From positions 256,001-320,000 of the forward strand of contig CAVYTA010000007.1 of assembly GCA_963771355.1 (NCBI GenBank): 64,000 nt of DNA, in the 5' to 3' direction. Each line of letters opens with the position of its first letter. Positions within the stretch are counted from its first letter, which is position 1. The position numbers and the translations under genes were made by a program. Under the pieces are notes generated by a model. The model was not told the DNA's origin, searched no databases, and saw nothing but the letters and a program-made list of their open reading frames with translations. The DNA comes from an uncultured Candidatus Rokubacteria bacterium (GTDB lineage Bacteria; Methylomirabilota; Methylomirabilia; Rokubacteriales; CSP1-6). Below, one piece after another: positions 26,463-49,057 of the stretch.

Positions 26463-27524
26463 GTGCGGCCCATCGACGCGATCCTCGACACCGCCATCGC
26501 CCTCAACGCGACCGACATCCATCTTCAGGCGGGACTGCCGCCGGTCTACCGGGTCCAGAAGCGACTCGTCCAGAAGGGCGGCGCCCGGCTCGGCCCTCAG
26601 GAGACGGAGGAGCTGGTCTTCTCGCTGATGACCGACCAGCAGAAGCGGATCTTCCGCGAGAAGCTCGATCACGACTTCTCCTGCGCGGTGCCGGGCCGGG
26701 CGCGCTTCCGGGTCAACGCCTTCCGGCAGCGCGACTCGGTGGCGGCGGCCCTGCGGCGCATCCCCTTCGAGATCCCGTCCTTCGAGAGCCTGGGCCTGCC
26801 CGCCAGCATGGCGGATCTCGCCCAGCTGCGGCGCGGCTTCGTGCTCATCACCGGCGCGGCGGGGCATGGGAAGTCGACCACCCTCGCCGCCCTCATCGAT
26901 CGGATCAACAGCGAGCGGCAGGTCCACGTGGTGACCATCGAGGATCCGATCGAGTACCTCTTCGTCCACAAGCAGAGCGTGGTGGTGCAGCGGGAGCTCG
27001 GCACCGACGTGGAGAGCTTCGCGGGCGGCCTCCGCGCCGCCCTCCGCGAGGATCCCGACGTGGTCCTCGTGGGCGAGATGCGCGACTTCCAGACCATCGA
27101 GGCCGCGCTGACCGCGGCGGAGACTGGCCACCTGGTCTTCAGCACGCTGCACACCAAGACGCCCGCCCAGGCCATCGACCGGATCGTGGATGTGTTCCCG
27201 CCGCACCAGCAAGGGCAGGTCCGCGTGCAGCTCGCGAACGTGCTCCACGCCGTCGTGACCCAGCAGCTCCTCGTGCGGAAGGACGGCGAGGGGCTGGTGG
27301 TGGCGGTGGAGCAGCTCATGGCGAACCCCGCGGTGTGCAACCTCATCCGGCAGGGCAAGACCTTCCAGTTGCCCTCGCTCATCCAGACCGGCGCCGCGGC
27401 GGGGATGGTGACGATGGAGCAATCGCTGAAGTCGCTGTGCGAGCGTGGCCTGGTCACCTACGAGGAGGCCCTGGAGCACGCCTTCGACGCGCACGAGCTC
27501 GCGCGTCTCATGGGACGCAGCTAG
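26463..27524 (+). CDS. pilT: type IV pilus retraction ATPase
   Basis: GHGKST, TIEDPIE, LREDPDVVLVGEMRD, AAETGH, STLHT, NLIR. Confidence 0.9.
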   Translation: MRPIDAILDTAIALNATDIHLQAGLPPVYRVQKRLVQKGGARLGPQETEELVFSLMTDQQKRIFREKLDHDFSCAVPGRARFRVNAFRQRDSVAAALRRIPFEIPSFESLGLPASMADLAQLRRGFVLITGAAGHGKSTTLAALIDRINSERQVHVVTIEDPIEYLFVHKQSVVVQRELGTDVESFAGGLRAALREDPDVVLVGEMRDFQTIEAALTAAETGHLVFSTLHTKTPAQAIDRIVDVFPPHQQGQVRVQLANVLHAVVTQQLLVRKDGEGLVVAVEQLMANPAVCNLIRQGKTFQLPSLIQTGAAAGMVTMEQSLKSLCERGLVTYEEALEHAFDAHELARLMGRS

Positions 27525-27554: not shown

Positions 27555-29357
27555 GTGGCGCTGGCGGCGATGGCGCCGTTCCTGCCCGTGCTGGGCGCCG
27601 GCTTCGTCAACTGGGACGACGAGGCGCTGCTCGTCGCGGAGACCGGCTACCGGGCGCCGGGGGCTCTGCGCTGGGCGCTGGCCTCCACCGCCATGGGCCA
27701 CTGGAGCCCGCTCGCCTGGCTCTCCTTCGCCCTCGACTACCGGCTCGGCGGCCTCGATCCCCGCGTCTTTCACGCCACCAGCCTGACGTTGCATGGGCTC
27801 AACGCCGCCCTCTTCTATGGCCTGGCCCGGCGGCTCCTGGCCGCCGCCGGGCCGGAGCGCGCTGACCCGGTTCAGGCCTGGGGCGCCGCGCTCGCGGCGC
27901 TCGTCTTCGCCGTGCACCCGCTGCGGGCGGAGCCGGTGGCCTGGATCTCGGACCGTCGTGACCTGCTCTGTACGGCATTTCTGCTGCTGGCGCTCATCGC
28001 CTATGTTCGGGGCGTGCGCGCGGGGGGGCCGCTCGCGCCCGGCTGGGGGCTCGCGTCGCTGGCGGCCTTTGCGGGGGCGCTCGGCTCGAAAGGCATCGCC
28101 GTGGTGCTTCCGCTCCTCCTCCTCGTCCTCGACTGGTATCCGCTGGGCCGCGCCGGGCGAGGCTGGCGCGCGCTCGTGCGCGAGAAAGCTTCGTACGTGG
28201 CGGTGGCCCTAGCGGGCGCCGTCGTCACGTGGCTGGCGGTGTGGGCCGATGCCGCGCCCCTCGGCTATCGAGAGTACGGTCCCCTGGCACGCCTCGCGTT
28301 GGCGGGGCACGCGGCCTGGCAATTGCTCGTGCGGCACCTGTGGCCCGTCGGGCTCTCCCCGCTCTACGAGCTGCCCGCCGAAGTGCGGCTCCTGACCCCC
28401 CGCTTCCTGGTTCCGTTACTCGCCGTGGGCGCGCTCACCGCCACGCTGGTCCAGCTCCGTCACCGCTGGCCCGCCGGTCTCGCCGCCTGGCTGGCCTCGC
28501 TCATCGCGTTGGCCCCGGTGAGCGGCATCGTGCTGGCGGGCCGGCACGTGGGGGCCGATCGCTATACCTATCTGGCGGGTCTGGGACTGGCGCTTCTCGC
28601 CGGCGGGGGCGGGGTCCATCTCGTCGCGCGCCGATCCCCGACGGCGCGCCGGATCGCCGGCGTCGCCGCGGCGCTGCTTCTGGTGGGGCTGGGATCCCTC
28701 GCGTGGCAACAGACCCTTCACTGGCGCGACTCGGAGCGCCTGTGGCGTCGGGCGGTGGCGGTGGAGCCCGACTGCGCGTCCTGCCTCAACAACCTGGGCC
28801 GTGCCCTCATGCGCGCGGACAGCCGGCGGCCGGCCCGGGACGCCGAGGCGGAGGTGCTGTTCCGGCGGGCGCTCACGCTGCGACCGGATCAGCCCGGCCC
28901 CTATCTCAATCTGGGCGCGCTGCTCGTCGGCCTGGGACGGCATGGCGAGGCCGAGACCGTGTTCCGCGAGATCGCGAGACGCTGGCCGGCCCTGGCGGAC
29001 GGCCCCGCCGGCCTGGCGGCGGTGAGCCGCGCGCGCGGCGACGAGGTCGCGGCCGCGGCGCTGCTGCGACAGGCGCTCGTGCTGGATCCCGGTTTCACCG
29101 GGGCCCGGGTGGAGCTGGGCCGGCTGCTGAACAATCGCGGGGTCGCCGCCGCGCGGGCCGGCCGTCTCCGGGAGTCGGCCGCCTTGCTCCGGGAGTCGGT
29201 GGGGCTGCTCCGGGCCGACCCCGAGCCATTGCGCAATCTTCGACAGGTGCTTCGCGCCCTCCGCGCCGCGGGCGACGAGACGGCGGCGCTGCGCGAGCTC
29301 GAGGCCCTCCGCGCCCTGGATCCGGCGCTGGCCGAGTCGGCCGGGCGGGAGCTTTAA
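27555..29357 (+). CDS. TMTC-like GT-C glycosyltransferase with C-terminal TPRs (paralog 1); start uncertain
   Basis: FVNWDD, HWSPL, FAVHPLRAEPVAW..R.D, ADRYTYL, then TPR helices. Confidence 0.8.
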   Translation: MALAAMAPFLPVLGAGFVNWDDEALLVAETGYRAPGALRWALASTAMGHWSPLAWLSFALDYRLGGLDPRVFHATSLTLHGLNAALFYGLARRLLAAAGPERADPVQAWGAALAALVFAVHPLRAEPVAWISDRRDLLCTAFLLLALIAYVRGVRAGGPLAPGWGLASLAAFAGALGSKGIAVVLPLLLLVLDWYPLGRAGRGWRALVREKASYVAVALAGAVVTWLAVWADAAPLGYREYGPLARLALAGHAAWQLLVRHLWPVGLSPLYELPAEVRLLTPRFLVPLLAVGALTATLVQLRHRWPAGLAAWLASLIALAPVSGIVLAGRHVGADRYTYLAGLGLALLAGGGGVHLVARRSPTARRIAGVAAALLLVGLGSLAWQQTLHWRDSERLWRRAVAVEPDCASCLNNLGRALMRADSRRPARDAEAEVLFRRALTLRPDQPGPYLNLGALLVGLGRHGEAETVFREIARRWPALADGPAGLAAVSRARGDEVAAAALLRQALVLDPGFTGARVELGRLLNNRGVAAARAGRLRESAALLRESVGLLRADPEPLRNLRQVLRALRAAGDETAALRELEALRALDPALAESAGREL

Positions 29358-29476
29358 GGGGCCTCTTGTGTTCATCCGGGTTTCCTGATACGGAAAGCCC
29401 AGGCTGGCGCCCGCACCGGCTCCCCACGAGCTCGAGAACAACCGGCGGCACCCGGAACCCCCAAGGAGACCTAGCC

Positions 29477-29863
29477 ATGGCTCAGGTGAAGCAGCTCACC
29501 CTGACCGCGCTATCCAAGCCCGGGGTGCTCGCCAGGATCTGCGGGGTGCTCTCGGACGCTGGGGTCAACCTGGTGGCCATCTGCGCGGCGGATGGCGATG
29601 GCCGCAGCAAGCTCCGGATGCTGGTCTCCGACCCCGCCCGGGCCAAGCAGGCGCTGGCGGCCGCCAAGATCCGGTGCGGCGAGGAGCCCGCCCTGCTGCT
29701 CACCCTGGACGACAAGCCGGGGAGCCTCGGGCGCGTGGTCGCGCGCCTGGCCGCGGCGAAGATCAACATCAAGTGCACCTACGCCACCACCGGGGGCGGC
29801 GGCACCGCCCAGGTCGTCCTCGTCGTCCCCAATCCGGACAAGGCGGAACGGGCCCTGGCCTGA
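29477..29863 (+). CDS. tandem ACT-domain protein
   Basis: KPGVLA..AGVNL and DKPGSLG..AKINI; AAGGAG RBS. Confidence 0.85.
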   Translation: MAQVKQLTLTALSKPGVLARICGVLSDAGVNLVAICAADGDGRSKLRMLVSDPARAKQALAAAKIRCGEEPALLLTLDDKPGSLGRVVARLAAAKINIKCTYATTGGGGTAQVVLVVPNPDKAERALA

Positions 29864-29867
29864 GACC

Positions 29868-30065
29868 GTGCGACTGAAGCGAGAGGACGTCGAGCGGATG
29901 ATGTCGGAGCGCCCGGCGGGCACCGCTCTCGAGGAGGCGCTGGAGGTGTTCGAGGTGTTCGCCAGCGGGACCCTGGCCGATGAGGTCTACATTCTCGACG
30001 ATGTGAGCGGCAAGCGCATCGCCATCGCGCCGGCGGCGCTGAAGGCGAAGTACAGAAAGGAGTGA
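29868..30065 (+). CDS. small hypothetical protein (65 aa)
   Basis: fills the gap between operon genes with typical codon bias. Confidence 0.6.
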   Translation: MRLKREDVERMMSERPAGTALEEALEVFEVFASGTLADEVYILDDVSGKRIAIAPAALKAKYRKE

Positions 30066-30071
30066 CCCCCC

Positions 30072-30899
30072 ATGGCCATCATCGTCATCTCCCATGAGAT
30101 CGGAGCGGGCGGTCCCGAGATCGGGCAAGCCCTCGGGGAGCGGCTCGGGTACCGGTGCGTCGGGCAAGATCTGATCGTCGACGTCGCGCGCCGCTACGGG
30201 CTCCTCGAGGAGAAGCTGTCGCATCTGGACGAGGCCAAGCCCTCGCTGTTCGAGCGCTTCGACGCAGAGACCCGACGGTACATCACCGTGATCCAGACCG
30301 CGCTCTACGAGTTCGCCGAGCACGACAACGTGATCCTGCTCGGCCGGGGCGGGCAGTGGCTCCTGCGGGGTATCCCTCACGTGCTGCGCGTGCGGGTGAT
30401 GGCGCCCTTCGACCTGCGCGTGAAGCGGCTGGGCAAGAAGATGGCCGGCCAGATGGGCGAGCAGACCAATCAGCGCACCGTCACCGACATGGTGCGACGG
30501 GACGACATGGAGAAGATCGGCCGGATGCGCTACCTCTACGAGGTGGACATCCGCGATCCCGCCCTCTACGACGTGGTCATCAACACCGAGAAGCTCCCCC
30601 ACGACTCCGCGGTGGAGGTGATCGCGGGCCTGGTGCGGCGACCAGAGATGGCCACCGGCGACGCGGGCTCCCGTCTGGTCTCCGACCGCGCGCTCGCCTC
30701 GCGCGTGCAGGTGGCCCTCGCCACCCACCCGGAGACGCGGAAGTACCGCACCACGGTGGAAGCCAAGGACGGCGTGGTGACCCTCGAGGGGACGGCCGCC
30801 CTCGAGGACGCGGTGGAAGTGGCCCGCGGCGTGACCGGCGTGCGCGAGGTGCGCACGCAGCAAGTGGAGATTCCCCCGATCCCGCCGTTCGTGGCGTAG
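30072..30899 (+). CDS. cytidylate kinase-like family protein with C-terminal BON domain
   Basis: ISHEIGAGG, ILLGRGG, YDVVINT; DRALASRVQ..DGVVTLEG..GVREV. Confidence 0.8.
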   Translation: MAIIVISHEIGAGGPEIGQALGERLGYRCVGQDLIVDVARRYGLLEEKLSHLDEAKPSLFERFDAETRRYITVIQTALYEFAEHDNVILLGRGGQWLLRGIPHVLRVRVMAPFDLRVKRLGKKMAGQMGEQTNQRTVTDMVRRDDMEKIGRMRYLYEVDIRDPALYDVVINTEKLPHDSAVEVIAGLVRRPEMATGDAGSRLVSDRALASRVQVALATHPETRKYRTTVEAKDGVVTLEGTAALEDAVEVARGVTGVREVRTQQVEIPPIPPFVA

Positions 30900-30959
30900 G
30901 CGCGCCCGGGCGGGTTCGCCCCGTCGCCATTCCAACCGTTCAGCCGCCGGCGGAGAAGG

Positions 30960-32147
30960 TCAGCCGCCGGTCGAGGGGCGGTCGGAGCGGGAGCGGTCCT
31001 CGGGGATCTCGCCCACCGTCGCCGTGACGGTCACCTTCTGCTTCTTGCGCCAGACCTCGAGGGTCACCGGCTTGCCCACGGGGGTCTCCGCCACCAGCCG
31101 CTGGAACTGGTGGAAGTCCTCTACCGGCGTCTTCTCGTAAGACAAGATCACGTCGCCCTGGACGAGTCCCGCCTTCGCGGCCGGGCTCCCGGGAATGGTC
31201 GAGGCGACGAGCGCGCCTTCGTTGCGGGGCAGCCCGAGGGACTGCACCAGCTCCTTCGAGAGCGGCTGAAGCGCCACGCCGAGCCAGCCGCGCACCACCT
31301 TGCCCTTCTCCACCAGTTGATCCACCACGCGCTTCACCATGTTCACCGGGATGGCGAACCCGATGCCCTGGCCCGCCGCGACGATGGCGGTATTGATGCC
31401 GATCACCTGGCCCTTGAGATTGATGAGCGGGCCGCCGGAATTGCCCGGGTTGATCGAGGCATCGGTCTGGATGAAGTTCTCGTAGGTGGCCACGCCCACG
31501 TCGGAGCGGCCGGTGGCGCTGATGACCCCCACCGTCACCGTCTGGTCGAGCCCGAAGGGATTGCCGATGGCGATGGCCCACTCGCCGACCTTGAGGGCGT
31601 CCGAGTCGCCCAGCGCGGCCACCCGCAGCTCGTGCCCGGGGTCGAAGCGGACGAGGGCGAGGTCGGTCTTGGGATCCACGCCCAGCACCTTGCCCCGATA
31701 CTCCTTCTTGTCCGACAGCCGCACCGAGATCTCGTCGGCGCCCTTGATCACGTGGAAGTTGGTGAGGACGAGTCCCCGCTTGTCGATGATGACGCCCGAC
31801 CCGAGGCTGGGCTGGCGGAACTCCGGCCGCTGTCCGGGAGTGTCCGTGCCGAAGAACTGCTTGAAGAAGTCCTGGAGGAACGGATCGTCGCCGGGCTGAG
31901 GGGCGATCGGCCGGCGGGCCTTGGAGCGGTGCACGGTGCCGATATTCACCACCGCGGGCCCGAGCTGCTGCGCCACGCCCACGAAGGTGGCCTGCAGCGT
32001 CTCGGGCAAGGCAGGGCCCGCTACCGCGCGCGCGGCTGACGGCACGGGCGTTCCGGCGGTGATGCGATCCCGGACGAGGTAGCCGGTGAGGGCAGACGCC
32101 AGCACCAGGATGAAGCCGATGAGTCCACCGAGGAGGGCGCGGTTCAT
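30960..32147 (-). CDS. HtrA/DegP family serine protease (one PDZ)
   Basis: LTNFHV, KTDLA, INPGNSGGPL, GIGFAIP, PDZ. Confidence 0.92.
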   Translation of the reverse strand: MNRALLGGLIGFILVLASALTGYLVRDRITAGTPVPSAARAVAGPALPETLQATFVGVAQQLGPAVVNIGTVHRSKARRPIAPQPGDDPFLQDFFKQFFGTDTPGQRPEFRQPSLGSGVIIDKRGLVLTNFHVIKGADEISVRLSDKKEYRGKVLGVDPKTDLALVRFDPGHELRVAALGDSDALKVGEWAIAIGNPFGLDQTVTVGVISATGRSDVGVATYENFIQTDASINPGNSGGPLINLKGQVIGINTAIVAAGQGIGFAIPVNMVKRVVDQLVEKGKVVRGWLGVALQPLSKELVQSLGLPRNEGALVASTIPGSPAAKAGLVQGDVILSYEKTPVEDFHQFQRLVAETPVGKPVTLEVWRKKQKVTVTATVGEIPEDRSRSDRPSTGG

Positions 32148-32168
32148 GTCACTGGCTGCGGGTGGGCG

Positions 32169-32198
32169 ATGATACTCACCGCCCGCGCGGGGTGTCAA
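32169..32198 (-). promoter_or_regulatory. putative sigma-70 promoter of htrA
   Basis: TTGACA-N18-TATCAT on the minus strand. Confidence 0.55.
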
Positions 32199-32339
32199 GC
32201 AACGCCCCCCATCGTCTCGCTCGACGATTTTTGAAGTCAGCACCCCAAATTGTGGCTGCCGGCGACTTCACGCCTGGCGGAGCAATGTCCAACTGAATGA
32301 TTTCCCTGGATTATTTCAGGTCGAATAAGCTTCGATGAC

Positions 32340-32355
32340 GGGCATGGCACTTGCT
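32340..32355 (+). promoter_or_regulatory. sigma-54 promoter of major pilin
   Basis: GGGCATGGCACTTGCT: GG-N10-GC, preceded by an AT-rich tract. Confidence 0.7.
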
Positions 32356-32438
32356 AGCATTGAGGACCGTACAGGTCGGCGACGCAGCTTGCGTACCGAC
32401 CGAACTTATAAACCTAATTGAATGTGGGAGGATCGATG

Positions 32439-32936
32439 ATGTTCACCTCAATGATGAAGGCGTTTCGCAGGACGGGGCGCGAGGAGGGATTCACCCTCGT
32501 CGAGCTTCTGATCGTGATCCTCATCGTCGGCATTCTCGCGGCGGTGGCAATTCCTCTGTACCTGGGGTACACGAAGGATGCCAAGCTGGCTGAAGGCAAG
32601 GCGCTCCTGGGCTCGGTGATGACGGCACTGCAGGGATGCGTGCAGGCCAAGGGCTCCGGGCAGAGCTGCTCGGTCAGCGAGATCGTCAATCGCGTCGGTG
32701 TCAGCACGGCCGGCGTGACGGGCGATGGGCGGTGGACGGTGACGACCTCGGGGAGCCTCGCGGTGTCCTCGACCTCGCCGCCGACCTTCAGCGGTACCAT
32801 TCAGGCGGTCGGCACGGGTGCCGACACGGCCGCGCTCTCGCTGGGCATGTTCCCGACCACGACCGGTGTCTTCCTCCGTTGCAACTCCTCCAGCAGCACG
32901 CCGCCGTCGGGTCCCACCGCCGGCGAGCCCTGCTAG
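32439..32936 (+). CDS. pilA: type IVa major pilin
   Basis: REEG|FTLVELLIVILIVGILAAVAIP class III signal; GGGAGG RBS; four Cys. Confidence 0.9.
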   Translation: MFTSMMKAFRRTGREEGFTLVELLIVILIVGILAAVAIPLYLGYTKDAKLAEGKALLGSVMTALQGCVQAKGSGQSCSVSEIVNRVGVSTAGVTGDGRWTVTTSGSLAVSSTSPPTFSGTIQAVGTGADTAALSLGMFPTTTGVFLRCNSSSSTPPSGPTAGEPC

Positions 32937-32955
32937 CCGAATTTCGTCGCAGCAC

Positions 32956-32988
32956 CCGGGGGTGACGGGGATGACCCGCCACCCCCGG
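32956..32988 (+). terminator. GC-rich stem-loop after pilin
   Basis: CCGGGGGTGACGGG/GATGA/CCCGCCACCCCCGG, 13 of 14 pairs; no clear U-tract. Confidence 0.55.
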
Positions 32989-33014
32989 CGTCATTCCCCC
33001 TCCTCTCGTCACCC

Positions 33015-34982
33015 ATGACCCCGCCCGGCACCGCCCCGATCGTCCGTGGCTTTCCGCGCTGGATCGACGGCACCCTCGTCATCCTCGCGGCGGTCGCCGC
33101 GTTTCTCCCCGGCATATTCGGCGGCTTCCTCGGCTGGGACGACGATCAGAACTTTCTCGAGAATCCCGGCTATCGGGGCCTGGGTCCCCGCCAGCTCGGG
33201 TGGATGCTCACCACCTTCCACATGGGGCACTGGAAGCCGCTCACCTGGCTCACCCATGGCGTGGACTGGGCGCTGTGGGGGATGCACCCGCTCGGCTACA
33301 AGGCGGGGAGCATCGCGCTGCACGTCGCCGCCACCCTGGCGTTTCTCGCGCTGGCGCGTCGGCTCCTGCGCCTGGCGCAGCCGGGGTACCCGCTCGACGC
33401 GGTGCGAGCGGGAGCTCTCGGCGCCGCGCTGCTCTTTGCCGTGCATCCGTTGCGCGTGGAGCCGGTGGCCTGGCTGAGCGCGCGCGGCGATCTCGTGGCC
33501 GGGCTCGTCGCATTCCTCAGCGTGCTGGCATATCTCCGGGGGACGCGGGCCGGGTACTGGATGTCCGTCGGCCTGTTCGCGGTGGCGCTCACGGGGAAAT
33601 CCATGCCCGTGACCCTGCCGCTCGTGCTCCTCGTCCTCGATGTCTACCCGCTCCGCCGGCTCGGCCCCTTCGCGGAAGGCGGCCCGTCCATCGGCGGCTG
33701 GTGGAATCCGCCGGCCCGGCGGATCTATCTCGAGAAGGCGCCTTTCCTCGTCCTGTCCGCCGCGGCCACCATCATGGCTGTCCTCGCGCGGATCGAGTTC
33801 GGAAGCCTCGCCGAGGTCAACGAGGTGGGGTGGGGCGCGCGCCTGGCTGCCAGCGTGTACGCGCTTGCCTTCCCCCTCTGGAAGATGGTGATCCCCGTAG
33901 GTCTCTCGCCTCTCTACGACCTCCGGGCGGCGCTGGGCCGCGGCCCCTGGCCCTTCGTCATGGCCGGCACGGCCGTCGCCGGGCTCACCGCGCTGGCGGT
34001 GGCGCGCGCCCGCCGCTGGCCGGCCTTCGCGGCGGTGTGGGCGTCCTACGTGATCATGCTGCTGCCGGTGTCGGGCCTCGTCCAGAACGGCCCTCAGATC
34101 GCAGCGGACCGCTATACCTATCTGGCCGGCGGAGGCTGGGCGCTGCTCGCCGGCGGTGGGCTCGCCTGGTGCGCCGCGCACGTGACGGCCCGCTCGCCGC
34201 GCGCCGCGCTCGCGCGGGGCGTGCTGGGTCTCATGGTGGCCGCCACGCTCGTCCTGGTGAGCGCAAGCGCGTGGCAGGCCCTCATCTGGCACAACTCGGT
34301 CACGCTCTGGTCGCGCGTGGTGGAGCTGGAGCCGGACGGCGCCATCGCGCGGACCGGGCTCGGCACCGCGCTGCTGGCCGACGGCCGGCCGCTCGAGGCC
34401 GCGGCCCACTACCGCCGCGCGCTGGAGATCTTCCCGCGGCTGCCCGAGGCGAATCTCGGGCTGGCTCTGATCCTGGCCGGCGAGGGCCGGGGCGCGGAGG
34501 CGCTGCTCCACGGGCGCCAGGCGGTGGCGCGTCAGCCGCAGCGGGCGGGATTCCGGATGGTGTTCGCCGAGATCCTCTGGGGCGCGGACCGGCGCGAGGA
34601 GTCGCTCGCCGAGCTGCGCGAAGGCGCGCGGCTGGCCCCCGCTGTCCCGCTCTTTCCCTACCTGCTCGCGGTCAAGCTCGCCCGGATGGGACGGGGACCG
34701 GAGGCCATCGCCGCGCTCGAGGAGGGCCGCCGGCTCGAGCGCGCCGCGTACCTCTCGGGTCTCGAGGGCGATCGATTCACGGCGCTGGTGTACGAGTCGA
34801 TCGATCCCCCCACCGCCGTGGCCGCCTGGCAGCGCTACGTGATCGCGCTGAGCCGGGTGCCGCGGCCGACGGCGCTGCAGCTCAGCCAGCTTGCGTATGG
34901 TATCGCCGCGCTCGACGCGCTCACGAAGAGCTCGGCGCCGCCCCGGGCGCTCCCCCCGGCGCCCTCAGGGACCTCTCGGTAG
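33015..34982 (+). CDS. TMTC-like GT-C glycosyltransferase with TPRs (paralog 2)
   Basis: FLGWDD, HWKPLTW, FAVHPLRVEPVAW, AADRYTYL, TPRs. Confidence 0.82.
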   Translation: MTPPGTAPIVRGFPRWIDGTLVILAAVAAFLPGIFGGFLGWDDDQNFLENPGYRGLGPRQLGWMLTTFHMGHWKPLTWLTHGVDWALWGMHPLGYKAGSIALHVAATLAFLALARRLLRLAQPGYPLDAVRAGALGAALLFAVHPLRVEPVAWLSARGDLVAGLVAFLSVLAYLRGTRAGYWMSVGLFAVALTGKSMPVTLPLVLLVLDVYPLRRLGPFAEGGPSIGGWWNPPARRIYLEKAPFLVLSAAATIMAVLARIEFGSLAEVNEVGWGARLAASVYALAFPLWKMVIPVGLSPLYDLRAALGRGPWPFVMAGTAVAGLTALAVARARRWPAFAAVWASYVIMLLPVSGLVQNGPQIAADRYTYLAGGGWALLAGGGLAWCAAHVTARSPRAALARGVLGLMVAATLVLVSASAWQALIWHNSVTLWSRVVELEPDGAIARTGLGTALLADGRPLEAAAHYRRALEIFPRLPEANLGLALILAGEGRGAEALLHGRQAVARQPQRAGFRMVFAEILWGADRREESLAELREGARLAPAVPLFPYLLAVKLARMGRGPEAIAALEEGRRLERAAYLSGLEGDRFTALVYESIDPPTAVAAWQRYVIALSRVPRPTALQLSQLAYGIAALDALTKSSAPPRALPPAPSGTSR

Positions 34983-35089
34983 GGCAACTCGCCACCACCT
35001 CGGGCGCAGCTCCACGTGCTCTCCGATACGCCGCAGCGGCCGTCACGCCGCCGACCCAGCGCAACCGGCGGGCGGGCGGGGAGCCACGC

Positions 35090-37069
35090 TCAGCTCGGCT
35101 CCGCCGCGCAGCCGTCCAGCTCGACCGGCCGTACGCCCAGCGCGGCCGCGGCACGCCGCGCATTGGCACAGGCGTCGGTCGCGCGCGGCACCAGGCGCAG
35201 CGCGTGGACGAAGGCGTCCATGGCCTCCGCGTAGCGGCCGCGCGCTGCGTAGGTGACGCCGAGGTTGTTCCAGGCGGCCGCGAGCTGCGGATCGAGCCGG
35301 ACGGCGAGCCGGTACAGCTCCTCCGCCTCGGCATCGCCCCGATACTGCTGGAGCAGCACGGCGAGCAGGAAGGCCAGACGGGCCCGCGCGTCCGGGATCT
35401 CCTCTGGCACCGCCAGGATCGCCGCGCGCAGCTCCCAGACGTGATAGCGGGACCAGACCGACGCGCGCTCGACCGCGGCGGCGAGCGCGGCCGCGGCCTC
35501 GCTGCGCGCGCCGTGGGCCTGTAGCAGCGTGCCCAGACGGATCCAGGCCACGGGGTGGTCGGGGTCCAAGGTGAGCGCCTCGCGAAGGCGGCGCTCCGCC
35601 TCCACGGGCCGCCCGGCCTGCTGCTCCACGAGGCCGACGTGCAGGACGAACTGGGCGCGCAGCGCCGGCAGGGTGACGGGCACCCGCGCGAGCGAGGCCT
35701 CGAAGTGCGCGCGGGCCTCGTCGAAGCGGCGGGCCTCGGCCAGCGCCCAGCCGAGGTAGAAGAGCGGGACGTCGCTGTCCGGGTCCGCCCAGGCGGCATG
35801 GCGCCAGAGCGCCACGGAGTCGTGCCAGACCGCGAGCTGTCGCTGCGTGAGGAGGCCGAGCCCGACGAGCAGCAGGAGCGTGGCGACCAGCGCGAGGCGG
35901 CCGAGGCGTGTGGTCAGTCGCCCGGCGCGCCAGGCGCGCCACCCCCAGGGCAGCCCCGCGCCCGCCACGATCGCCCAGCCGATCAAGGGCAGGTAGGAGT
36001 AGCGATCGGCCGCGATCTGCGGGCCGTTCGGCAAGATGCCCGCCGCGGGAATGAGCAAGGCGACATAGGCCACCCAGGCCGTGAGGCCCGCCGGCCAACG
36101 GCGGCGCAGGGCCATCAGGGCCACGGTGAGCGCGAGCGTGACCGCGCCCGGCACGAGGTAGCGGGCGGTGAGGGGCTCGACGGGATGGTAGAGGGTGTAG
36201 AGCGGTGACAGGGGCCACGGCCACAGCGTCTTGCCCAGATAGAACGCGAGGCCGTAGCCGGTGAGCGCCAGCCGCGGGGGAAGGCTGGCCGCCTCCACGG
36301 GCGCGAGGATGCCCCGGCCGAAGGCGATCGCCAGCATGATCCCCGCCGCGGCGACGGCCACCACCACGAAGGGGAGCTTCTCGACGAGTACGGGGACGAG
36401 GGTCCGCCGGGAGAGCCGTCGCAGCGGATAGATGTCGAGGGCCAGCAGGACAATCGGCAAACCCACCACGATGGACTTGGCGAACGCGGCCAGGAGGAAG
36501 GCCCCCGCCGAGGCAGCCAGCCAGCCCGCGTGCGCCCGGCCCGATGGCCCTGCGCGCCGCGCCGCGGTCAGGTAGGCGAGGACGGAGACCAGAGCGAAGC
36601 ATCCGCTCACCACATCGCGGCGCTCGGTGACCCACGCCACCGATTCCACGCGCAGCGGGTGCAGCGCGAAGAGGAGCGCGGCGGAGGCGGCGCCGAGGTG
36701 AAGGGGGAATCGATCGTCGTCACGGATGGGGGCGAAGCCGAGCGCGAGGAGCTGGAGGGCCACGGCATAGACCAGCACCGCGTTGGTGGCGTGGAACATG
36801 AGGGAGGTCAGATGGTAGCCCGCCGGATTCATGCCCCAGAGGGCATGGTCCAGGCCCAGGGTCAGCCACGTCACCGGGATGTAGTGCCCCATGTGGACGG
36901 CGGTGAGCATCCACCGGAGCTCGGCCGCGCCGAGGCCGCGATAGTGCGGGTTGCCCAGGAAGTTCTCGGCGTCGTCCCAGTTGAGGAAGTCCGCGTCGAG
37001 GGCGGGCAGGAAGGCAGCGAGAGCCCCCGCGAAGACCAGGACGGGAAGGCTTCTCACGAGCGCGCGCAC
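35090..37069 (-). CDS. TMTC-like GT-C glycosyltransferase with TPRs (paralog 3)
   Basis: FLNWDD, HYIPVTW, FALHPLRVESVAWVTERRD, AADRYSYL, AWNNLG. Confidence 0.85.
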   Translation of the reverse strand: MRALVRSLPVLVFAGALAAFLPALDADFLNWDDAENFLGNPHYRGLGAAELRWMLTAVHMGHYIPVTWLTLGLDHALWGMNPAGYHLTSLMFHATNAVLVYAVALQLLALGFAPIRDDDRFPLHLGAASAALLFALHPLRVESVAWVTERRDVVSGCFALVSVLAYLTAARRAGPSGRAHAGWLAASAGAFLLAAFAKSIVVGLPIVLLALDIYPLRRLSRRTLVPVLVEKLPFVVVAVAAAGIMLAIAFGRGILAPVEAASLPPRLALTGYGLAFYLGKTLWPWPLSPLYTLYHPVEPLTARYLVPGAVTLALTVALMALRRRWPAGLTAWVAYVALLIPAAGILPNGPQIAADRYSYLPLIGWAIVAGAGLPWGWRAWRAGRLTTRLGRLALVATLLLLVGLGLLTQRQLAVWHDSVALWRHAAWADPDSDVPLFYLGWALAEARRFDEARAHFEASLARVPVTLPALRAQFVLHVGLVEQQAGRPVEAERRLREALTLDPDHPVAWIRLGTLLQAHGARSEAAAALAAAVERASVWSRYHVWELRAAILAVPEEIPDARARLAFLLAVLLQQYRGDAEAEELYRLAVRLDPQLAAAWNNLGVTYAARGRYAEAMDAFVHALRLVPRATDACANARRAAAALGVRPVELDGCAAEPS

Positions 37070-40577: not shown

Positions 40578-41273
40578 ATGAGGATTACCAAGGTAATAGT
40601 CGGCGGGGCCCTCGGTCTCGCCTTGCTGGCGGGGGCTCTTTCGAGCCCGGCGGCCGCGGTCCCCCTCGTCTTGACGTTCGAGGGATTGCAGAACACCGAA
40701 GACGTGAACGCATTCTACAACGGCGGGACGGGAAGCCTCGGGAGCGGTCCCGGAACCAATTTCGGGATCCAGTTCAGCAACGCCGTCGCGTTCATCGATA
40801 GCGATGCGGGGGGGACGGGCAATTTCGGCGGCGAGCCCTCGCCCTCGACGGCAATCACGTTCCTCGGCGCCAGCGCGACCACCATGAACGTCGCGGCGGG
40901 ATTCGACACCGGGTTTTCGTTCTTCTACTCGGCGATCGCCGCCCCCGGGGTGGTGCGAGTCTGGAGCGATCTGGATGGGACCGGCACTCTGCTGGTCGAG
41001 CTGGATCTGGCGCTCACGCCGTTCCAAGGCGCGCCGGATCCGACCGGCGCCTTCAGCCCGTTCCTCCCCTTTGGCGTGACCTTCGATGGGATCGCCCGCT
41101 CCGTGGACTTTTCCGGGTCGTCCAACCAGATCGGGTTCGACAACATCACGCTCGGCTCCGAGCGCCCCATCGGCGCGGCCCAAGCGGTCCCCGAACCTGG
41201 TAGCCTCCTCCTCCTGGCTGCGGGCCTCGCCGGGGTCGGACTCCTCGCCAGGCTGAGGGCGTTCTGTAAATAA
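40578..41273 (+). CDS. PEP-CTERM sorting domain protein
   Basis: signal peptide; C-terminal VPEPGSLLLLAAGLAGVGLLARLR. Confidence 0.92.
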   Translation: MRITKVIVGGALGLALLAGALSSPAAAVPLVLTFEGLQNTEDVNAFYNGGTGSLGSGPGTNFGIQFSNAVAFIDSDAGGTGNFGGEPSPSTAITFLGASATTMNVAAGFDTGFSFFYSAIAAPGVVRVWSDLDGTGTLLVELDLALTPFQGAPDPTGAFSPFLPFGVTFDGIARSVDFSGSSNQIGFDNITLGSERPIGAAQAVPEPGSLLLLAAGLAGVGLLARLRAFCK

Positions 41274-41380: not shown

Positions 41381-41857
41381 ATGGGATCTCGCGCCGGAGC
41401 ATCGCGGATCACACTGCAAGACCAGCGCGGCGTCTCGATTCTCGAGGTGCTGATCGCCGCGCTGCTCCTCGGCATGGCCTCGGCGGGCGTCGCCGTCATG
41501 TTCGGCACCGGCCAGGCCTTCATCGTGGGCGAGGGCGATAACCGCATTGCGGCCGCGCTGGCGCGGCAAGCGGTCGAGCAAGTGCGCGCGTCCGGCTTCG
41601 GGAACCCCCTGGTCGCCGTCGATCCGCGCGAGGAGCTGACCTTCACCGCGGTGCCCTATGCCGGCGTCCATCCCGGCTATGAGCGGACCATCACCATCAC
41701 GTCCGTGTGCGCCAACAACTATCTGCCCGCCTGCTCGCCGCCCACGCCGATCGAGGCCAAGCTCATCACCGTCACCGTGCGGGCGACCCAGGGCGTGCAG
41801 GGTGCCGACGTGTCGGCTTCACCGGTGGTCTTGCGCTCGGTCATGGTGCTCAAGTGA
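41381..41857 (+). CDS. minor pilin, PilV-like
   Basis: DQRG|VSILEVLIA prepilin motif with E5. Confidence 0.82.
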   Translation: MGSRAGASRITLQDQRGVSILEVLIAALLLGMASAGVAVMFGTGQAFIVGEGDNRIAAALARQAVEQVRASGFGNPLVAVDPREELTFTAVPYAGVHPGYERTITITSVCANNYLPACSPPTPIEAKLITVTVRATQGVQGADVSASPVVLRSVMVLK

Positions 41858-42495
41858 TCAAGGGCCTCGCACGGCTCTGGCGTGACCGTCGGGGCGTGAC
41901 CCTGGTCGAGCTGCTCATCGCCACCGCCATCTTCACCATCGTGGCCGTCGCCATCGGGTCCCTCTACGTCTCGACCCAGCGCGCCTTCGACTACGGCAGC
42001 GCCCAGGCCTACGCGCAACGGCAGGGCACCATGATTCAGGAGGACCTCCAGCGCCGGCTCCAGCGCGCGGTGGACTTCGCCGTCACCGGATGCGGATCCG
42101 CCACCGCCACCGCCTCCGTCCGCTACAGCCTCCCCGACGGAACCGACTGGTGCCTCCACCAGGACCAGAAAGTGGGCGACACCTTCCCCCAGCTCTATGT
42201 CTGCTCGCTCAACTCGGCGATTCCCCTCTTCAGCGGTGGCTTCGCCTGCAGCTCCACCTCGGTTCAGAGCCTCACCGGCCAGGCCCAGGCGATGAACGAG
42301 TCCGCCCGCAAGCTCGGCACTCAGCTCCGCGTCGCGAGCAGCACCTTCGTCAGCGTGTCCACCATGAACGGCTCCGCCATGGCGGGGCGTGCGCTCGACG
42401 TGCGCTTCGACCTCTACGACGGCGTCATGTACAACCTGAATCCGGCCAGCTACACGGGCATGCGCTTCGGCTTCACCACCACGCTGAGGAACTGA
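41854..42495 (+). CDS. minor pilin, PilW-like
   Basis: DRRG|VTLVELLIA; GTGA overlap. Confidence 0.82.
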   Translation: MIKGLARLWRDRRGVTLVELLIATAIFTIVAVAIGSLYVSTQRAFDYGSAQAYAQRQGTMIQEDLQRRLQRAVDFAVTGCGSATATASVRYSLPDGTDWCLHQDQKVGDTFPQLYVCSLNSAIPLFSGGFACSSTSVQSLTGQAQAMNESARKLGTQLRVASSTFVSVSTMNGSAMAGRALDVRFDLYDGVMYNLNPASYTGMRFGFTTTLRN

Positions 42496-44603
42496 TGACC
42501 CGCCCGACCCCGCCGTCCCCGTGTGCGCTCGCCGGCCAGCGGGGCAGCGTCATCCTGATCAGCATCGTGCTCGTCTTCGTGATGACCCTGCTCGGCCTTG
42601 CGCTCTTCGAGCTGGGCGCGATCGAGAACCGCATGTCGCTCTCCAGCGCCGCCGACGCGCGCGCGTTCGAGGTGGCGCAGGGGGGGATCGAGCGGGCCCT
42701 CCGCGAGCTCCAGGATGGCTTCGACGCTGACACCCAGGGGAGCGAGAGCTGGGCCGACAACGACGGCGTGCGGGCCCCCATCTGCTCCGCGTCCTGCGTC
42801 ACCGGGGCGTATCGGCCGATGACCCTCGCCAATACCAGCTTCCCCGGCGGAGGCAGCTACGCCGTTGAGATCATGCTGGTGACGGTGGCGCAGGCCAACG
42901 CGACCTCGCCGTATCCGATCGGCCTCAGCTGCTTCAGCAACGCGGCCAATGTCTGCACGAACCTCGTCTTCGTCCGCAGCACGGGAACGGTGACGGACAG
43001 CCCGGCGGGGGGCGCCACCTCGCCCGCGCCGGCCGGCTATACCGCGGTGAAGACGCTCCAGGTGCTGGCCCGGGCCTATGCGCCGTCCGTGTTCGCCAAT
43101 GGCGTCGTGGCCGGCACGCCCTCCGCGCTCCAGCCGGTGAACGGTAATGTCCTCATCTCGGGCTCGGCGCAGATTCTCGGCGCCCCCGTGGGGGCCCTGT
43201 CCGCCATCAACTGGAACGGCGTGAACGCCGGCTTGCGAAATGATCTGAGCAATCTGATCGCCGACGCTCAGATCCTTCGCCGGCTGCCCGCCCAGCAAGC
43301 CGTTTGCGCGCCTACCGCCGTGCCGTGCGCCGTGCCGAACGTGTACTCGCTCGGGGCCGGGGCCCAGGTGGCCCGCCCGACCGGCATCGCCGCGATCACC
43401 CTCGCGGGCGGGGCCGCCATCGGCGGGGCCGCCGGCGCCGCCTACGCTACCGGCGGCAGCACGCCCGGCTCGCTCGCGGGCAAGGGGCCGCTCGATTCCA
43501 TCTTCGTCGCCGATGGCTGCCAGAACAGCACGTGCGCCGATAGCTACGCGGTCACTGCCCCCTCGCAGCTTCCGATCGTCGACATGGGGGCCATCGGCCG
43601 CGCGTATCCCGAGAACCCGGTGGCGCCGTTCCCCACGCTGACGAGCCCGGTGCGCATCGCCGGCGTCACTTACGGGACCGGGCTCCAGAACTACTTCTCG
43701 ACACGCGCGGCCAACATGACGGCCATGCTGTCCGCCAACGACATGCCCGGAACCGTTGGCGGTCTTACCTCGAGTACCAGCAACTGCTCCAATTCGGCGT
43801 GCAGTCCCATCACCGGCTTCACGAACAAAGATGGCGCGGCACGGCTGGGGCGGATCTGCTGGACTCGCAATTCGGGGACCCTCACCTTCGGCGTGTCCAC
43901 CGCCGGCGATCCCTGCAACTCGCCCGCTACCGCGGCCGACCCGCTGCTGGTCTACAACACCAGCGCGAACGGCTGGCGAATCGATCGAGGAGCCTTCTCC
44001 CGGTCCGACACCACCTGTCCAGGGACGCAGATCTGCTACACCGGCGTTGCGATCATCTACAATGCCAACTCGGTGTCGATCGAGGAGACGGTGACGAGCC
44101 TCTGCGGCGTCGCCAATTCGAACTGCACCGCCGGGAACGAGAAGTTTCCGACCAACGATCTCATGGCGCTCCTCACGCCCGGCAATGTCAGCGTGGCCGC
44201 GACGACGACCAATGTCGTCGCGCGCGTGATGGCCATGCTCTACGCGGGGACGGACTTCGTCTCGCGCTCGGTGGTGCCGGCGACCCCCACGCGTATCGTG
44301 GGCGGCGTGGCAGCCAGTCGCTTCTGTTTCGGTGGCGGGGGGGCCTGCCCCGGCGGTACCTCGAACGCCCCCGAGATCTACCAGGCGCCACTGAACGGCT
44401 CGTCGTTGAACGCGACCCCGCCGGTGGCCCATGACGCACGTGGGCTGCCCAATGAGCTCCTCGCCCTAGCGCCGTCGCTCAATGGTCAGGCGCCGAAGCA
44501 CTGGCGGGTGGAAAGCGTGCCCCGCCTGTGGCTCGAGTGCCGGCCCATCGCGCCCTCGGCGACCCTGCCCACCACGCCCACCGGCGCCTGCGGCTACAAC
44601 TAG
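42495..44603 (+). CDS. large PilX-like minor pilin with Cys-rich extension (702 aa)
   Basis: QRG|SVILISIV lacking E5, AFEVAQGGIE PilX N-terminus, VRSTG; TGATG overlap. Confidence 0.8.
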   Translation: MTRPTPPSPCALAGQRGSVILISIVLVFVMTLLGLALFELGAIENRMSLSSAADARAFEVAQGGIERALRELQDGFDADTQGSESWADNDGVRAPICSASCVTGAYRPMTLANTSFPGGGSYAVEIMLVTVAQANATSPYPIGLSCFSNAANVCTNLVFVRSTGTVTDSPAGGATSPAPAGYTAVKTLQVLARAYAPSVFANGVVAGTPSALQPVNGNVLISGSAQILGAPVGALSAINWNGVNAGLRNDLSNLIADAQILRRLPAQQAVCAPTAVPCAVPNVYSLGAGAQVARPTGIAAITLAGGAAIGGAAGAAYATGGSTPGSLAGKGPLDSIFVADGCQNSTCADSYAVTAPSQLPIVDMGAIGRAYPENPVAPFPTLTSPVRIAGVTYGTGLQNYFSTRAANMTAMLSANDMPGTVGGLTSSTSNCSNSACSPITGFTNKDGAARLGRICWTRNSGTLTFGVSTAGDPCNSPATAADPLLVYNTSANGWRIDRGAFSRSDTTCPGTQICYTGVAIIYNANSVSIEETVTSLCGVANSNCTAGNEKFPTNDLMALLTPGNVSVAATTTNVVARVMAMLYAGTDFVSRSVVPATPTRIVGGVAASRFCFGGGGACPGGTSNAPEIYQAPLNGSSLNATPPVAHDARGLPNELLALAPSLNGQAPKHWRVESVPRLWLECRPIAPSATLPTTPTGACGYN

Positions 44604-44720: not shown

Positions 44721-45752
44721 ATGACCCCCAATTTCCTTCGCCGGCACCGGGTGGTGGGGCTGGACGTCGGCCACGGGTCCGTCAAGGCGCTGGCGCTGGA
44801 GCGTCGAGGCTCCCAAGAGATCGTGGTGGGGCGTGGGCTGACCCGGCTGGAGGGCAATCCCGACTCGCGACAGGTCGGGCAGGCCATCCACGCGGCACTT
44901 GCCGCCGCGGGGGCGGACGGCCAGCCGGTGATCGCGGCCGTGGGTGGTCCCGAGGTGGTCATCCGCCAGGTGTCGCTGCCGCCGGTGCCGCTCGCCCGCA
45001 TCCTCCCCGCGCTGGAGATCCAGCACCGCGAGCTCGGCCTGCTCCCGCCCGCCGAGTCCGTGATGGACGCCCAGGTGCTCCGCCGCGCCAAGGATGGCGT
45101 CACGTCCGAGATCCTCGCCATCTGCGCGCCGCGCGTCCTGGTCGACGAGCGTACGAAGCTCCTCCAGCAGGCGGGCGTGAGGCTCCAGACGCTCGACGTG
45201 GAGCCGCTCGCGCTGCTGAACGCGGCGATCTACATCACCCAGCTCGAGCCGGGCGAGCTCCTGGTCCTGCTCAATGTCGGCCGACGGTCGTCCTCGCTCT
45301 GTCTCTTCAGCGAGCAGGGGCCGGTGGTCTCGCGCTACCTCGACATCGGCGCCGAGGCCTTCTTCGAGCAGCTGCGCGGTCCCGGCGGAGGAGCGGTCTA
45401 CTCCCCCGAGGCGATGGCGCGGGCGCTGGCGCCCAGCGAGCTGGAGGGAGCCCAGTTCGCCTGCCGCGATCTCGTCGATCGCATCGCCGAGGACATCCGC
45501 CTCTCGCTGACGTTCTACCGGACCGAGTACGACCGCGAGAGCCTGCCCCGCTACGCCATCGGCGGGTGGACGGAGCTGCCCCCCCTGGGCCGCTGGCTCG
45601 CGCAGCGAATCGGGCTCAACGCGCCGCTCGAGGTGATGGACCCGTTCAGGGCGGTGGAGGTGAAGATCACGCCGGCGGCGCCGGCGCGGGAGACCGGTGA
45701 CACCGGCCCCCAGTACCTCCAGGCCTTCGGGCTCGCATTGAGGGGCCTGTGA
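44721..45752 (+). CDS. pilM: type IV pilus assembly protein PilM-like
   Basis: VGLDVGHGSVK, LDVEPLAL, LNVG, IRLSLTFY, DPF. Confidence 0.8.
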   Translation: MTPNFLRRHRVVGLDVGHGSVKALALERRGSQEIVVGRGLTRLEGNPDSRQVGQAIHAALAAAGADGQPVIAAVGGPEVVIRQVSLPPVPLARILPALEIQHRELGLLPPAESVMDAQVLRRAKDGVTSEILAICAPRVLVDERTKLLQQAGVRLQTLDVEPLALLNAAIYITQLEPGELLVLLNVGRRSSSLCLFSEQGPVVSRYLDIGAEAFFEQLRGPGGGAVYSPEAMARALAPSELEGAQFACRDLVDRIAEDIRLSLTFYRTEYDRESLPRYAIGGWTELPPLGRWLAQRIGLNAPLEVMDPFRAVEVKITPAAPARETGDTGPQYLQAFGLALRGL

Positions 45753-46384
45753 CTCGCCGCTTCAGCATCGACCTCATTCATCCCGGCCAGCTCTCCCTGA
45801 CCTGGCAGGAATGGTTCGTCGGCAATCAGGGCGCGCGGCGCCTGGCGGCGGTCGCCCTCGCCGGCATCCTCGTGCTGGTGCTCATCATGGTCGGCGGCAT
45901 CCTGCCGACCTACTGGCGCCTGTCGTCGGATCTCAACGCCATCCCGCGCCTCCAGAAGGACCTGGCGGCGTCGGAGGGCGACCTCAATGTCCTGCGGACC
46001 AACCTGCAGGCTCTCACGCTGGAGGCGCGGCGCCAGGTGCGCTGGGCCGGGCTCCTGGGCGCCCTCAGCCAGCACATTCCGCCCACCATACGCCTGCAGA
46101 CGGTGGAGGCGTCGCGGCCCGCGCCGGCGGCGGGCGCCGCTCAGCCGCCCCCGGACGCGAAGGCGGAGGGCGTGCTGCGCATCGAGTCGGTCACGCCGGT
46201 GCGCTCGGGCAGCCAGCCGCTCCTGGAGGTGGCGCAGTTCATGGCCGGGCTCATGCGCGATCCCGCCGTGAATAAGCGGTTCCAGCTCAAGAGCTGGGAC
46301 ATCAAGCCGCCCGGCGGCGGGAGCGCGGAAGACGAGACCCAGTACCTCAACATCACCATCCTGCTCTCGGAGCGCGCCCAGTGA
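45749..46384 (+). CDS. pilN: PilN-like alignment protein
   Basis: SIDLI N-terminal motif, TM, coiled coil, W..LL..LS..IP. Confidence 0.7.
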   Translation: MTRRFSIDLIHPGQLSLTWQEWFVGNQGARRLAAVALAGILVLVLIMVGGILPTYWRLSSDLNAIPRLQKDLAASEGDLNVLRTNLQALTLEARRQVRWAGLLGALSQHIPPTIRLQTVEASRPAPAAGAAQPPPDAKAEGVLRIESVTPVRSGSQPLLEVAQFMAGLMRDPAVNKRFQLKSWDIKPPGGGSAEDETQYLNITILLSERAQ

Positions 46385-47365
46385 GAGGCCGCCCGCTCGC
46401 CCTCGCCTGGGTCGCGCTGGCGGTCGTCCTCGTGGTCCTCATCGGGGTGGCGCTCACGCAGTGGCGCTCGCTGGCCAGCCGCGGCCAGCGCGCATCGACC
46501 GAGCGGGTCCTCCTCGCCAATGAGATCCGGGCGAAGGAAGACCAGATCGTCACCTTGATGCGCGCCAACGTGGGATTGCTCCAGGAGATGCAGTGGACGT
46601 CGGCGGGCGGCGACCCGGCCGCCTTTCTCACCCGGCTGGCCGACCTCGCGCGCGAGAAGCGCATGAAGGTGATCGGCATCGGTCCCCTCGAGCGGTCCGC
46701 CACCGCGCAGTTCAACAAGTCGTGGCACACCATCCAGGTCGTGGGCCCCTACCGCGAGCTGCGCGACCTCGCCGGGCGCGTGGAGACGGAGAAGGGCATC
46801 CTCGAGGACGTCACGGTGACGGCGATCAAGGATGGAGGCCGCCTGGGCGCGTCGCGGGCGGACGAGATCGAGGCTCGCTTCAAGATGACCGCGCTCGAGC
46901 TGACGCCGGACGCGCGCAAGGTGTTCGAGCGCGCGATGGCGGCGAGTGGCGGGGCGGCCGCGGGCGCGACCGCCCCGTCGCTGGCGCTGCCCCTGCCGGC
47001 GGCGCCGGCGGAGGTCGGGAGCGATGCGCGCGATCCCTTCGCCATGACTACGGCGATGCGCCGTCCGGCGCCGCCGGCAGGGGGCCGCCCGGCCGGCCGG
47101 CCCCTCCGCGGCCGGCCCCTCTCCGGCGGGGCCGGCCAGCGAGCCGCGCCCGGTGGGGTTCGAGCTGAAGGGGATCGTGGCCTTTCCCGGCGGCTATCTC
47201 GCCATCGTGAACAATCAGATCGTCAAGACCGGCGACACGGTCCTGGGCCACCGCGTCGAGCGGATCGCCGAGGACATGGTCGTCTTTCGCGAACCGGGCG
47301 GCGGCACCCGACAGGTGACCCTTCCCGGCCTGACCGAGGGGCCCCCCGGCGGGCCGAGGAGGTGA
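46381..47365 (+). CDS. PilO-like plus PilP/MshK-like fusion interrupted by an apparent +1 frameshift near 47080-47084
   Basis: TM, coiled coil, V.GPY.EL; RDPF; C-terminal ELKGIV..AIVNNQIVKTGD in the +1 frame. Confidence 0.65.
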
Positions 47366-47373
47366 GGGACGCC

Positions 47374-49053: not shown

Positions 49054-49057
49054 CGCG

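Follow-up and report, generated by a model that had tools for sequence, protein, structure and literature searches.

A likely TfpW-type pilin O-glycosylation locus, of uncertain sugar, in an uncultured Rokubacteria bacterium

The stretch analysed here (the window; 64,000 nucleotides, C7:256001-320000) comes from the genome of an uncultured Candidatus Rokubacteria bacterium (5.5 Mb, completeness 99.8%). The names carried by its homologs suggest Methylomirabilota/Rokubacteria. It carries a type IVa pilus locus in which three paralogous membrane proteins, G1, G2 and G3, are encoded around pilA, the gene of a Ser/Thr-rich major pilin. By analogy with TfpW of Pseudomonas, the locus is likely a TfpW-type pilin O-glycosylation system, although the sugar is uncertain. 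We consider it quite probable that at least one of the three paralogs glycosylates the pilin, with arabinofuranose then the somewhat favoured sugar. Our best reading, to which we give a probability of roughly 0.45, is that enzymes of the G1-G3 type glycosylate the neighbouring pilin with D-arabinofuranose (D-Araf), in the manner of TfpW. The central features are the following, with positions in the window.

26463..27524, + strand: pilT, pilus retraction ATPase (TIGR01420, 455 bits, above the cut-off).
27555..29357, + strand: G1, GT-C-type membrane domain and TPR, 600 amino acids (aa); 30 bp 3' of pilT, the most divergent copy.
32436..32936, + strand: pilA, major type IVa pilin (N_methyl and TIGR02532 above the cut-off), mature part from 32490; the likely acceptor.
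33015..34982, + strand: G2, predicted GT-C membrane domain and TPR, 655 aa; starts 78 bp 3' of pilA, the best candidate pilin glycosyltransferase.
35090..37069, - strand: G3, GT-C-type membrane domain and TPR, 659 aa; convergent with G2.

This arrangement, with one paralog after pilT, one directly after pilA and one convergent, had been described in an earlier sequence-only reading of the window and was recovered from the open reading frames (ORFs). Identity to G1 was 40% for G2 and 44% for G3. All three proteins possess the WDD (residue 20 in G1, 41 in G2 and 31 in G3), HPLR.E.VAW and ADRY.YL motifs reported there, and WDD was present in 142 of 149 relatives. Over an alignment of 150 sequences D43 was invariant, and D42, R157, D159, K195 and R366 were conserved in at least 90%. 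Pfam matched TPR in the C-terminal part of each paralog, and this was the only portion to which Pfam and NCBIfam gave a name: the Pfam GT-C and DUF1736 models did not match the membrane domains, even at E<=1. A sequence search of the PDB with the membrane-domain profile likewise returned no chain at E<=1.

The fold was recovered by structure search. An AlphaFold model of G2 residues 1-430, built from the 150-sequence alignment, had a predicted local distance difference test score (pLDDT) of 95; an earlier run on a three-sequence alignment had yielded a shallow G1 model with a mean pLDDT of 54 in the membrane domain, which was unusable. When the G2 model was compared with 48,161 chains using VIA-align, the top 20 matches all belonged to the GT-C clan (Z 19.7 to 9.2), with rank 21 at Z 5.1. 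They included AglB (Z 19.7, root mean square deviation 4.7 over 315), Pmt2 (19.1), STT3 (18.0) and ArnT (16.6), and the best Foldseek matches were STT3, ArnT and Pmt. G2 is thus predicted from its model to be a GT-C protein, in agreement with the sequence-only reading, and G1 and G3 would be GT-C proteins by homology to it. A hydropathy scan gave 8-9 segments above threshold, and about 11-12 long helices were counted by eye in the G2 model (TfpW: 11).

The candidate acceptor is exceptional in composition. The mature pilin (148 aa) contains 18 Ser and 18 Thr, and our recount of 24.3% upholds the earlier figure of about 24%. Its precursor ranked first in Ser/Thr content among 2,010 called genes (from four of eight contigs; median 9.6%). 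In 24 prepilin-motif proteins from genomes lacking the G1-G3 protein family, a mixture of pilins and pseudopilins, the median was 14.7% and the maximum 21.2%, so that none reached 24.3%. The minor pilins (13-18%) and a PEP-CTERM protein (15.6%) had also been called Ser/Thr-rich; they do lie above the 90th percentile (12.4%), but they are not extreme. Modelling G2 and the pilin together as a complex gave a score of 0.00, which was counted neither for nor against. In some relatives the orthologous pilA is present in two or three copies, partly in tandem (G086:C124; G088:C248/C101).

Genes of the G1-G3 family recur beside pilins. This genome has six copies. Five have a prepilin gene no more than about 5 kb away, and the remaining one is found some 2 kb 3' of pilQ. 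Besides G2, one copy lies directly 3' of a second pilA on contig C6, one follows pilMNOPQ-aro genes and one has a minor prepilin at a distance of about 3 kb. Across a phylum sample the family was present in 43 of 61 genomes. Linkage was counted in 22 of these 43, where 91 near-complete family matches were listed and 150 of the 253 prepilin motifs were used. At least 13 of the 91 genes (in 11 of the 22 genomes) start no more than 1 kb 3' of a same-strand prepilin motif, where 0.07 would be expected at random, and at least 25 lie within 10 kb of one versus 1.8 expected by random placement. In the taxonomic family (108 genomes), 18 genomes matched this pilin; two weak matches (E about 1e-35) were set aside, leaving 16 genomes that are kin, so that their counts are not independent. 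The next family gene was co-directional in nine of these, convergent in four, only upstream in one and absent in two with fragmented contigs. A family gene thus directly follows the pilin in 13 of 16 genomes and lies within 5 kb in 14, and the recurring adjacency looked for was found. A quick tree, covering 72 of 148 domains and relied on only for the pilA-downstream and G3-like clades, united the copies 3' of pilA, including G2 (98% support in the SH-aLRT branch test), and placed G3 in its own clade of four rows from four genomes (99%). G1 had the longest end branch of the three paralogs (0.94). A family search of plasmids gave one weak archaeal match, and a search of phages gave none.

The sequence-only reading had contrasted G1-G3 with TfpW-type enzymes. 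That contrast does not hold, because the published anatomy of TfpW is that of G1-G3. In its accessible text, the TfpW preprint (bioRxiv 10.1101/2020.04.19.049825) describes a 646 aa GT-C protein of Pseudomonas with 11 predicted helices, a TPR tail and, in periplasmic loop 1, a DDX motif, encoded directly 3' of pilA in several genera. The enzyme puts D-Araf on multiple pilin Ser/Thr residues from a lipid-linked donor made via DPPR synthase, DprE1 and DprE2. The accessible part of PMC11194591 only restates this description. Like TfpW (P. aeruginosa group IV / P. paraeruginosa), the proteins described here have about 650 aa, a GT-C membrane domain, a DDX motif in the first outer loop and a C-terminal TPR; the G2 gene is directly 3' of pilA; and DPPR synthase, DprE1 and DprE2 are encoded in the genome without adjoining pilA. 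In contrast to TfpW, a single pilA is here flanked by three copies, out of six in this genome; DprE1 and DprE2 are fused, no GtrA was found and the host belongs to another phylum. TfpW was compared by its published description only, and kinship to it rests on anatomy. No TfpW name occurred among 120 listed homologs from a search with the TMTC-like subtype, and none of the titles of 76 GTDB family loci named a pseudomonad or a close relative. According to the accessible portions of bioRxiv 10.1101/150227 (also PMC11841053 and PMC12369383), D-Araf on TfpW pilins blocks several pilus-specific phages; by analogy, we infer that phage shielding may be a function of this locus.

A candidate donor pathway lies 4.5 kb past the end of the window, about 36 kb 3' of pilA.

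C7:324538-325419, same direction as pilA: DPPR synthase (NF008977, 276.6 bits against a cut-off of 234).
C7:325410-327617, same direction as pilA: fused DprE1-DprE2 (match to solved DprE1 at E 1e-73 and to solved DprE2 at E 1e-30).

DprE1 was found in 34 of the 108 genomes of the taxonomic family: in every one of the 16 that have this pilin, and in 18 of the 92 others, of which 18 a single genus accounts for 13. It was lacking from the two genomes with weak pilin matches. It shares the pilA contig, at a distance of 35-51 kb, in this genome and in four relatives (G049, G117, G118 and G048). The set is similar to the three-component pentofuranose systems described in the accessible text of PMC11127046, in which a polyprenyl-phosphoribose synthase dependent on phosphoribosyl pyrophosphate (PRPP), together with DprE1/E2, feeds a GT-C enzyme. 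Unlike the set found here, those systems have an O-polysaccharide acceptor and include a flippase.

In the proposed mechanism, DPPR synthase would join the phosphoribose of PRPP to a polyprenyl lipid in the cytoplasm, a phosphatase (no gene assigned) would remove the 5'-phosphate, and DprE1-DprE2 would epimerise the lipid-linked ribose to arabinose. The lipid-linked sugar would then be flipped across the membrane by an unassigned route. In the periplasm G2, and likely G3 and G1, would transfer it from the polyprenyl-phosphate carrier to Ser/Thr residues of PilA, with the DD motif of the first outer loop catalysing the transfer. The TPR tails may help to choose the acceptor, a form of substrate choice that we infer for this locus as the sequence-only reading had, and the paralogs may split sites or acceptors between them (major pilin, minor pilins).

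The same reading had called G1-G3 TMTC-like. The accessible text of Eisenhaber et al. 2021 (PMC7801869) sets out seven motifs of TMTC and mentions prokaryotic TMTC homologues of full length, giving no function, acceptor or gene context for them. Many relatives of G1-G3 carry the JGI automatic label 'protein O-mannosyl-transferase', and the occurrence of this large family in bacteria is already in print and in database names. We mapped the TMTC motifs onto G1-G3 by motif order and by way of intermediate bacterial relatives. Like animal TMTC1-4, which we take to be CAZy family GT105, G1-G3 have a GT-C domain followed by a TPR tail, with DD (M1), RxD (M3), the M4 lysine and [DE]RxxY in the same order (WDD; RRD, RGD and RRD; K179, K195 and K198). 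Unlike TMTC1-4, all three have GH[WY]xP for SHKSYRP in M2, K[SG] for KE in M4 and LY (SPLY) for DW in M5; M7 is DRxxY, not ERxxY, and M6 PxxP keeps one proline (PVSG, PAAG). TMTC_DUF1736 (PF08409) matched neither G1-G3 nor any other protein of this genome.

The family consists of two subtypes. That of G1-G3 is marked by GH[WY]xP, K[SG], SPLY and DRY, with KE in only two of 149 close relatives. Among 120 listed members of the other subtype, YRP was present in 86, KE in 96 and D[WY] in 114, and the listing assigned DUF1736 to 51. The G1-G3 profile recovered 119 of these 120 at E<1e-10. It also found, at E 1.8e-31, a protein of relative G008 that scored 28.2 bits against DUF1736 in one search and 24.6 in another (cut-off 27), and the ESM Atlas listed a chordate DUF1736 cluster at 0.93. 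By sequence, then, G1-G3 are remote TMTC kin linked through DUF1736-bearing bacterial relatives, and they fail several of the defining motifs. Mannose, the sugar that kinship to TMTC had suggested, is unsupported, because the TMTC residues proposed or modelled to contact mannose and metal differ in G1-G3 and the donor genes travelling with the pilus locus make arabinofuranose. Unlike for TMTC1-4, we have no evidence here for a mannose donor or for cadherin-like acceptors. No paper linking TMTC to bacterial pilins, and no treatment of type IV pilus glycosylation in Rokubacteria, was found in a literature search that most subscription journals lay outside.

A number of observations weigh against pilin arabinosylation by these enzymes. 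The strict proline-rich loop 4 motif of TfpW, YX6PFX7P, was absent from G1-G3 and occurred in one of 149 and none of 120 relatives. In relaxed form, Y-x6-P is kept only in G3 of the three, and Y-x6-P-x9-P is found in 100 of the 149. Since this motif is lacking and TfpW was compared by description only, we do not file G1-G3 as members of TfpW; by analogy they likely work like it. DprE1 (371 against 500) and DprE2 (164 against 250) are best matches that nevertheless fall below the NCBIfam cut-offs. The genomes in which DprE1 co-occurs with this pilin are related to one another. Whole genera have DprE1 fixed, including one in which 13 of 13 genomes carry it without this pilin. DprE1 is missing from 32 of the 43 family-positive genomes, and relatives without it were found to have pilin-adjacent family genes (G002, G012, G021, G024 and G030). 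The lack of GtrA also speaks against arabinose. In an alternative reading, the same enzymes would glycosylate the pilin with another donor, either a hexose or modified sugar from a GT2 synthase or ribofuranose from DPPR synthase alone, and the arabinose pathway would serve lipopolysaccharide or another glycan. The pilin-adjacent family genes of DprE1-negative relatives fit this reading. Several GT2 enzymes of this genome are similar to synthases of polyprenyl-phosphate sugars, all as weak matches with no donor model above its cut-off; a sugar island with such a GT2 sits within this very locus in relative G048; and galU lies 3' of the pilus operon. DPPR synthase alone is widespread (31 of 61 genomes, and 27 of 33 in the family) and lies in an operon containing lptD, and homologs of DprE1/E2 also serve O-polysaccharide side chains, according to the accessible text of PMC11127046. 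In seven of eight DprE1-negative relatives examined, the next gene after DPPR synthase is of the DUF362 type (one contains an intein); this suggests that the same lipid-ribose precursor undergoes a different step there. We nevertheless consider another donor somewhat unlikely, given the presence of DprE1 in every genome with this pilin, its place on the pilA contig in five of them, and the use of D-Araf by the only characterised enzyme of this anatomy.

The acceptor may also be other than the pilin. A broad O-glycosylation system for exported proteins (PEP-CTERM proteins, adhesins, lipoproteins), nearer to animal TMTC and with the pilin as one acceptor or a minor one, would suit a family of very great size (85,837 representatives at E<=1e-10), arranged in tandem with as many as 15 matches in one genome and with many copies at aroB-efp-accBC-liv or cobalamin loci. 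The family-pilin link is weak outside this group: only seven of the 76 loci across GTDB have a prepilin motif in the flanking DNA, which extended to at most 6 kb. In the phylum sample, 66 of the 91 family genes had no prepilin within 10 kb among the motifs listed, in fragmented assemblies. We judge such a system improbable at this locus, however, as the copies in this genome keep so close to prepilin genes or pilQ and the G2 clade stays 3' of this pilA. Still less probable, in our view, is that the three proteins, in the manner of ArnT or Gtr enzymes, modify something other than protein, such as lipid A or a surface polysaccharide, or that they have kept the fold but serve the pilus as accessory proteins without catalysis. 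ArnT, ALG and Aft score nearly as high as protein-modifying enzymes, so that the acceptor is not readable from the fold, and the glutamate and aspartate proposed as TMTC metal ligands are missing. Against this, the DD, RxD, K and R positions are conserved, both characterised GT-C + TPR families (TMTC and TfpW) act in protein glycosylation, and the genes adjoin a Ser/Thr-rich pilin.

The remaining features of the pilus locus are as follows.

32340..32355, + strand: sigma-54-like GG-N10-GC motif 5' of pilA, read by eye, with two mismatches.
32954..32991, + strand: GC-rich hairpin in the gap between pilA and G2, without a U tail (-30.7 kcal/mol, z -1.7).
40578..41273, + strand: PEP-CTERM protein (PF07589 above the cut-off), a possible further acceptor.
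41381..44603, + strand: PilV-like, PilW-like and PilX-like minor pilins (N_methyl and PilX_N matches), possible further acceptors.
44721..57312, + strand: remaining pilus operon, with PilM-like, PilN-like (by position only), PilQ-like secretin, AAA ATPase, PilB-like and PilC-like proteins (best NCBIfam matches, mostly below the cut-offs).
Within 44721..57312, + strand: sensor kinase and sigma-54 regulator (best NCBIfam matches, mostly below the cut-offs).
57322..58203, + strand: galU, UTP-glucose-1-phosphate uridylyltransferase (TIGR01099, 367 bits, above the cut-off).

The pilA ATG at 32436 is preceded by a GGAGG site. The motif at 32340..32355 was called against what we take to be the sigma-54 consensus, and it was not among the sites from a scan allowing one mismatch. 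That scan gave four sites versus 3.4 expected, so that the positions alone are suggestive; exact consensus sites lie at 23959-23973, 5' of a GGDEF/HD-GYP pair, and at 40522-40536, 5' of the PEP-CTERM gene. The hairpin was rejected as a significant element, since 13 of 200 shuffles folded equally well, which is not clearly above chance. Metatranscriptome contigs from one rhizosphere study covered the locus thinly and evenly; with DNA carry-over possible, they were not taken as evidence of expression or co-transcription. The position of galU after the pilus operon was as earlier described, and it was rejected as a donor source because UDP-glucose is general-purpose and there is no GT2 in this locus.

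For G1 the start codon is in doubt: the first helix appears to start 5' of the GTG, and the frame is open from 27525, directly after the pilT stop. In the region 27510-27560, G1 is in frame with pilT, separated by a single TAG, and there is no clear start before the first helix. The pilT-G1 part of the locus may be decaying, because the orthologs of G1 in relatives G116 and G117 also lack an ATG at that point, relative G118 lacks both pilT and the G1 copy, and pilT is truncated in relative G089. Elsewhere in the window, a single ORF of 890 aa (46381-49053) combines a PilO-like start, a stretch resembling a wrong frame and the PilQ-like secretin; the probable cause is a frameshift or a misassembly spanning pilO/pilP/pilQ. 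The CHASE2 and adenylate/guanylate cyclase domains at 37966-39936 (- strand) occupy separate overlapping frames and are likely one gene split by frameshifts.

Beyond the window, C6:2099452-2120874 is a second complete type IVa pilus locus. Its pilA is immediately followed by a TMTC-like gene that belongs to the other subtype (YRP/KE/ER), and a further family copy comes after pilQ-aroC-aroB. Three more PilA-like genes (C5:526054, C5:259832 and C6:1244389) stand alone, with no family gene in the 9-10 kb around them. In three relatives YfhO-like membrane proteins occur beside the orthologous pilA, one of them with a PMT_2 protein too. The YfhO-like proteins (about 980 aa) are encoded just 5' of this pilA in one genus, and the PMT_2 gene follows two TMTC-like genes. 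In G048 (C10:112000-151999) the sugar island is inserted among the pilin-flanking transferases and encodes a GDP-mannose dehydratase-like protein, an epimerase, an aminotransferase, a radical SAM protein, a GT2, an SIS isomerase and a PMT_2-like protein. A similar island lies at C6:2134-2148 kb in this genome, 14-28 kb from a family copy.

TfpW already provides a case of a GT-C + TPR enzyme that glycosylates pilin. The present locus adds a complete candidate set in an uncultured lineage, with acceptor, three transferases and an unusually complete donor pathway, and it adds evidence for a remote kinship of such genes to human TMTC1-4. A wider proposal, which we hold to be doubtful, is that TfpW and animal TMTC1-4 mark the opposite extremes of a single, very large bacterial family of protein O-glycosyltransferases guided by TPRs. 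The subfamily described here, without the proposed TMTC mannose and metal ligands, would have switched to arabinofuranose, its paralogs sharing out the major pilin, minor pilins and PEP-CTERM proteins. If true, this would provide a model with a soluble acceptor, expressible in E. coli, for sugar and site choice in TMTC, and it would be the first known protein arabinosylation in this phylum. The set is amenable to a test in a laboratory strain, which would tell whether the motif changes predict the sugar across tens of thousands of clusters.

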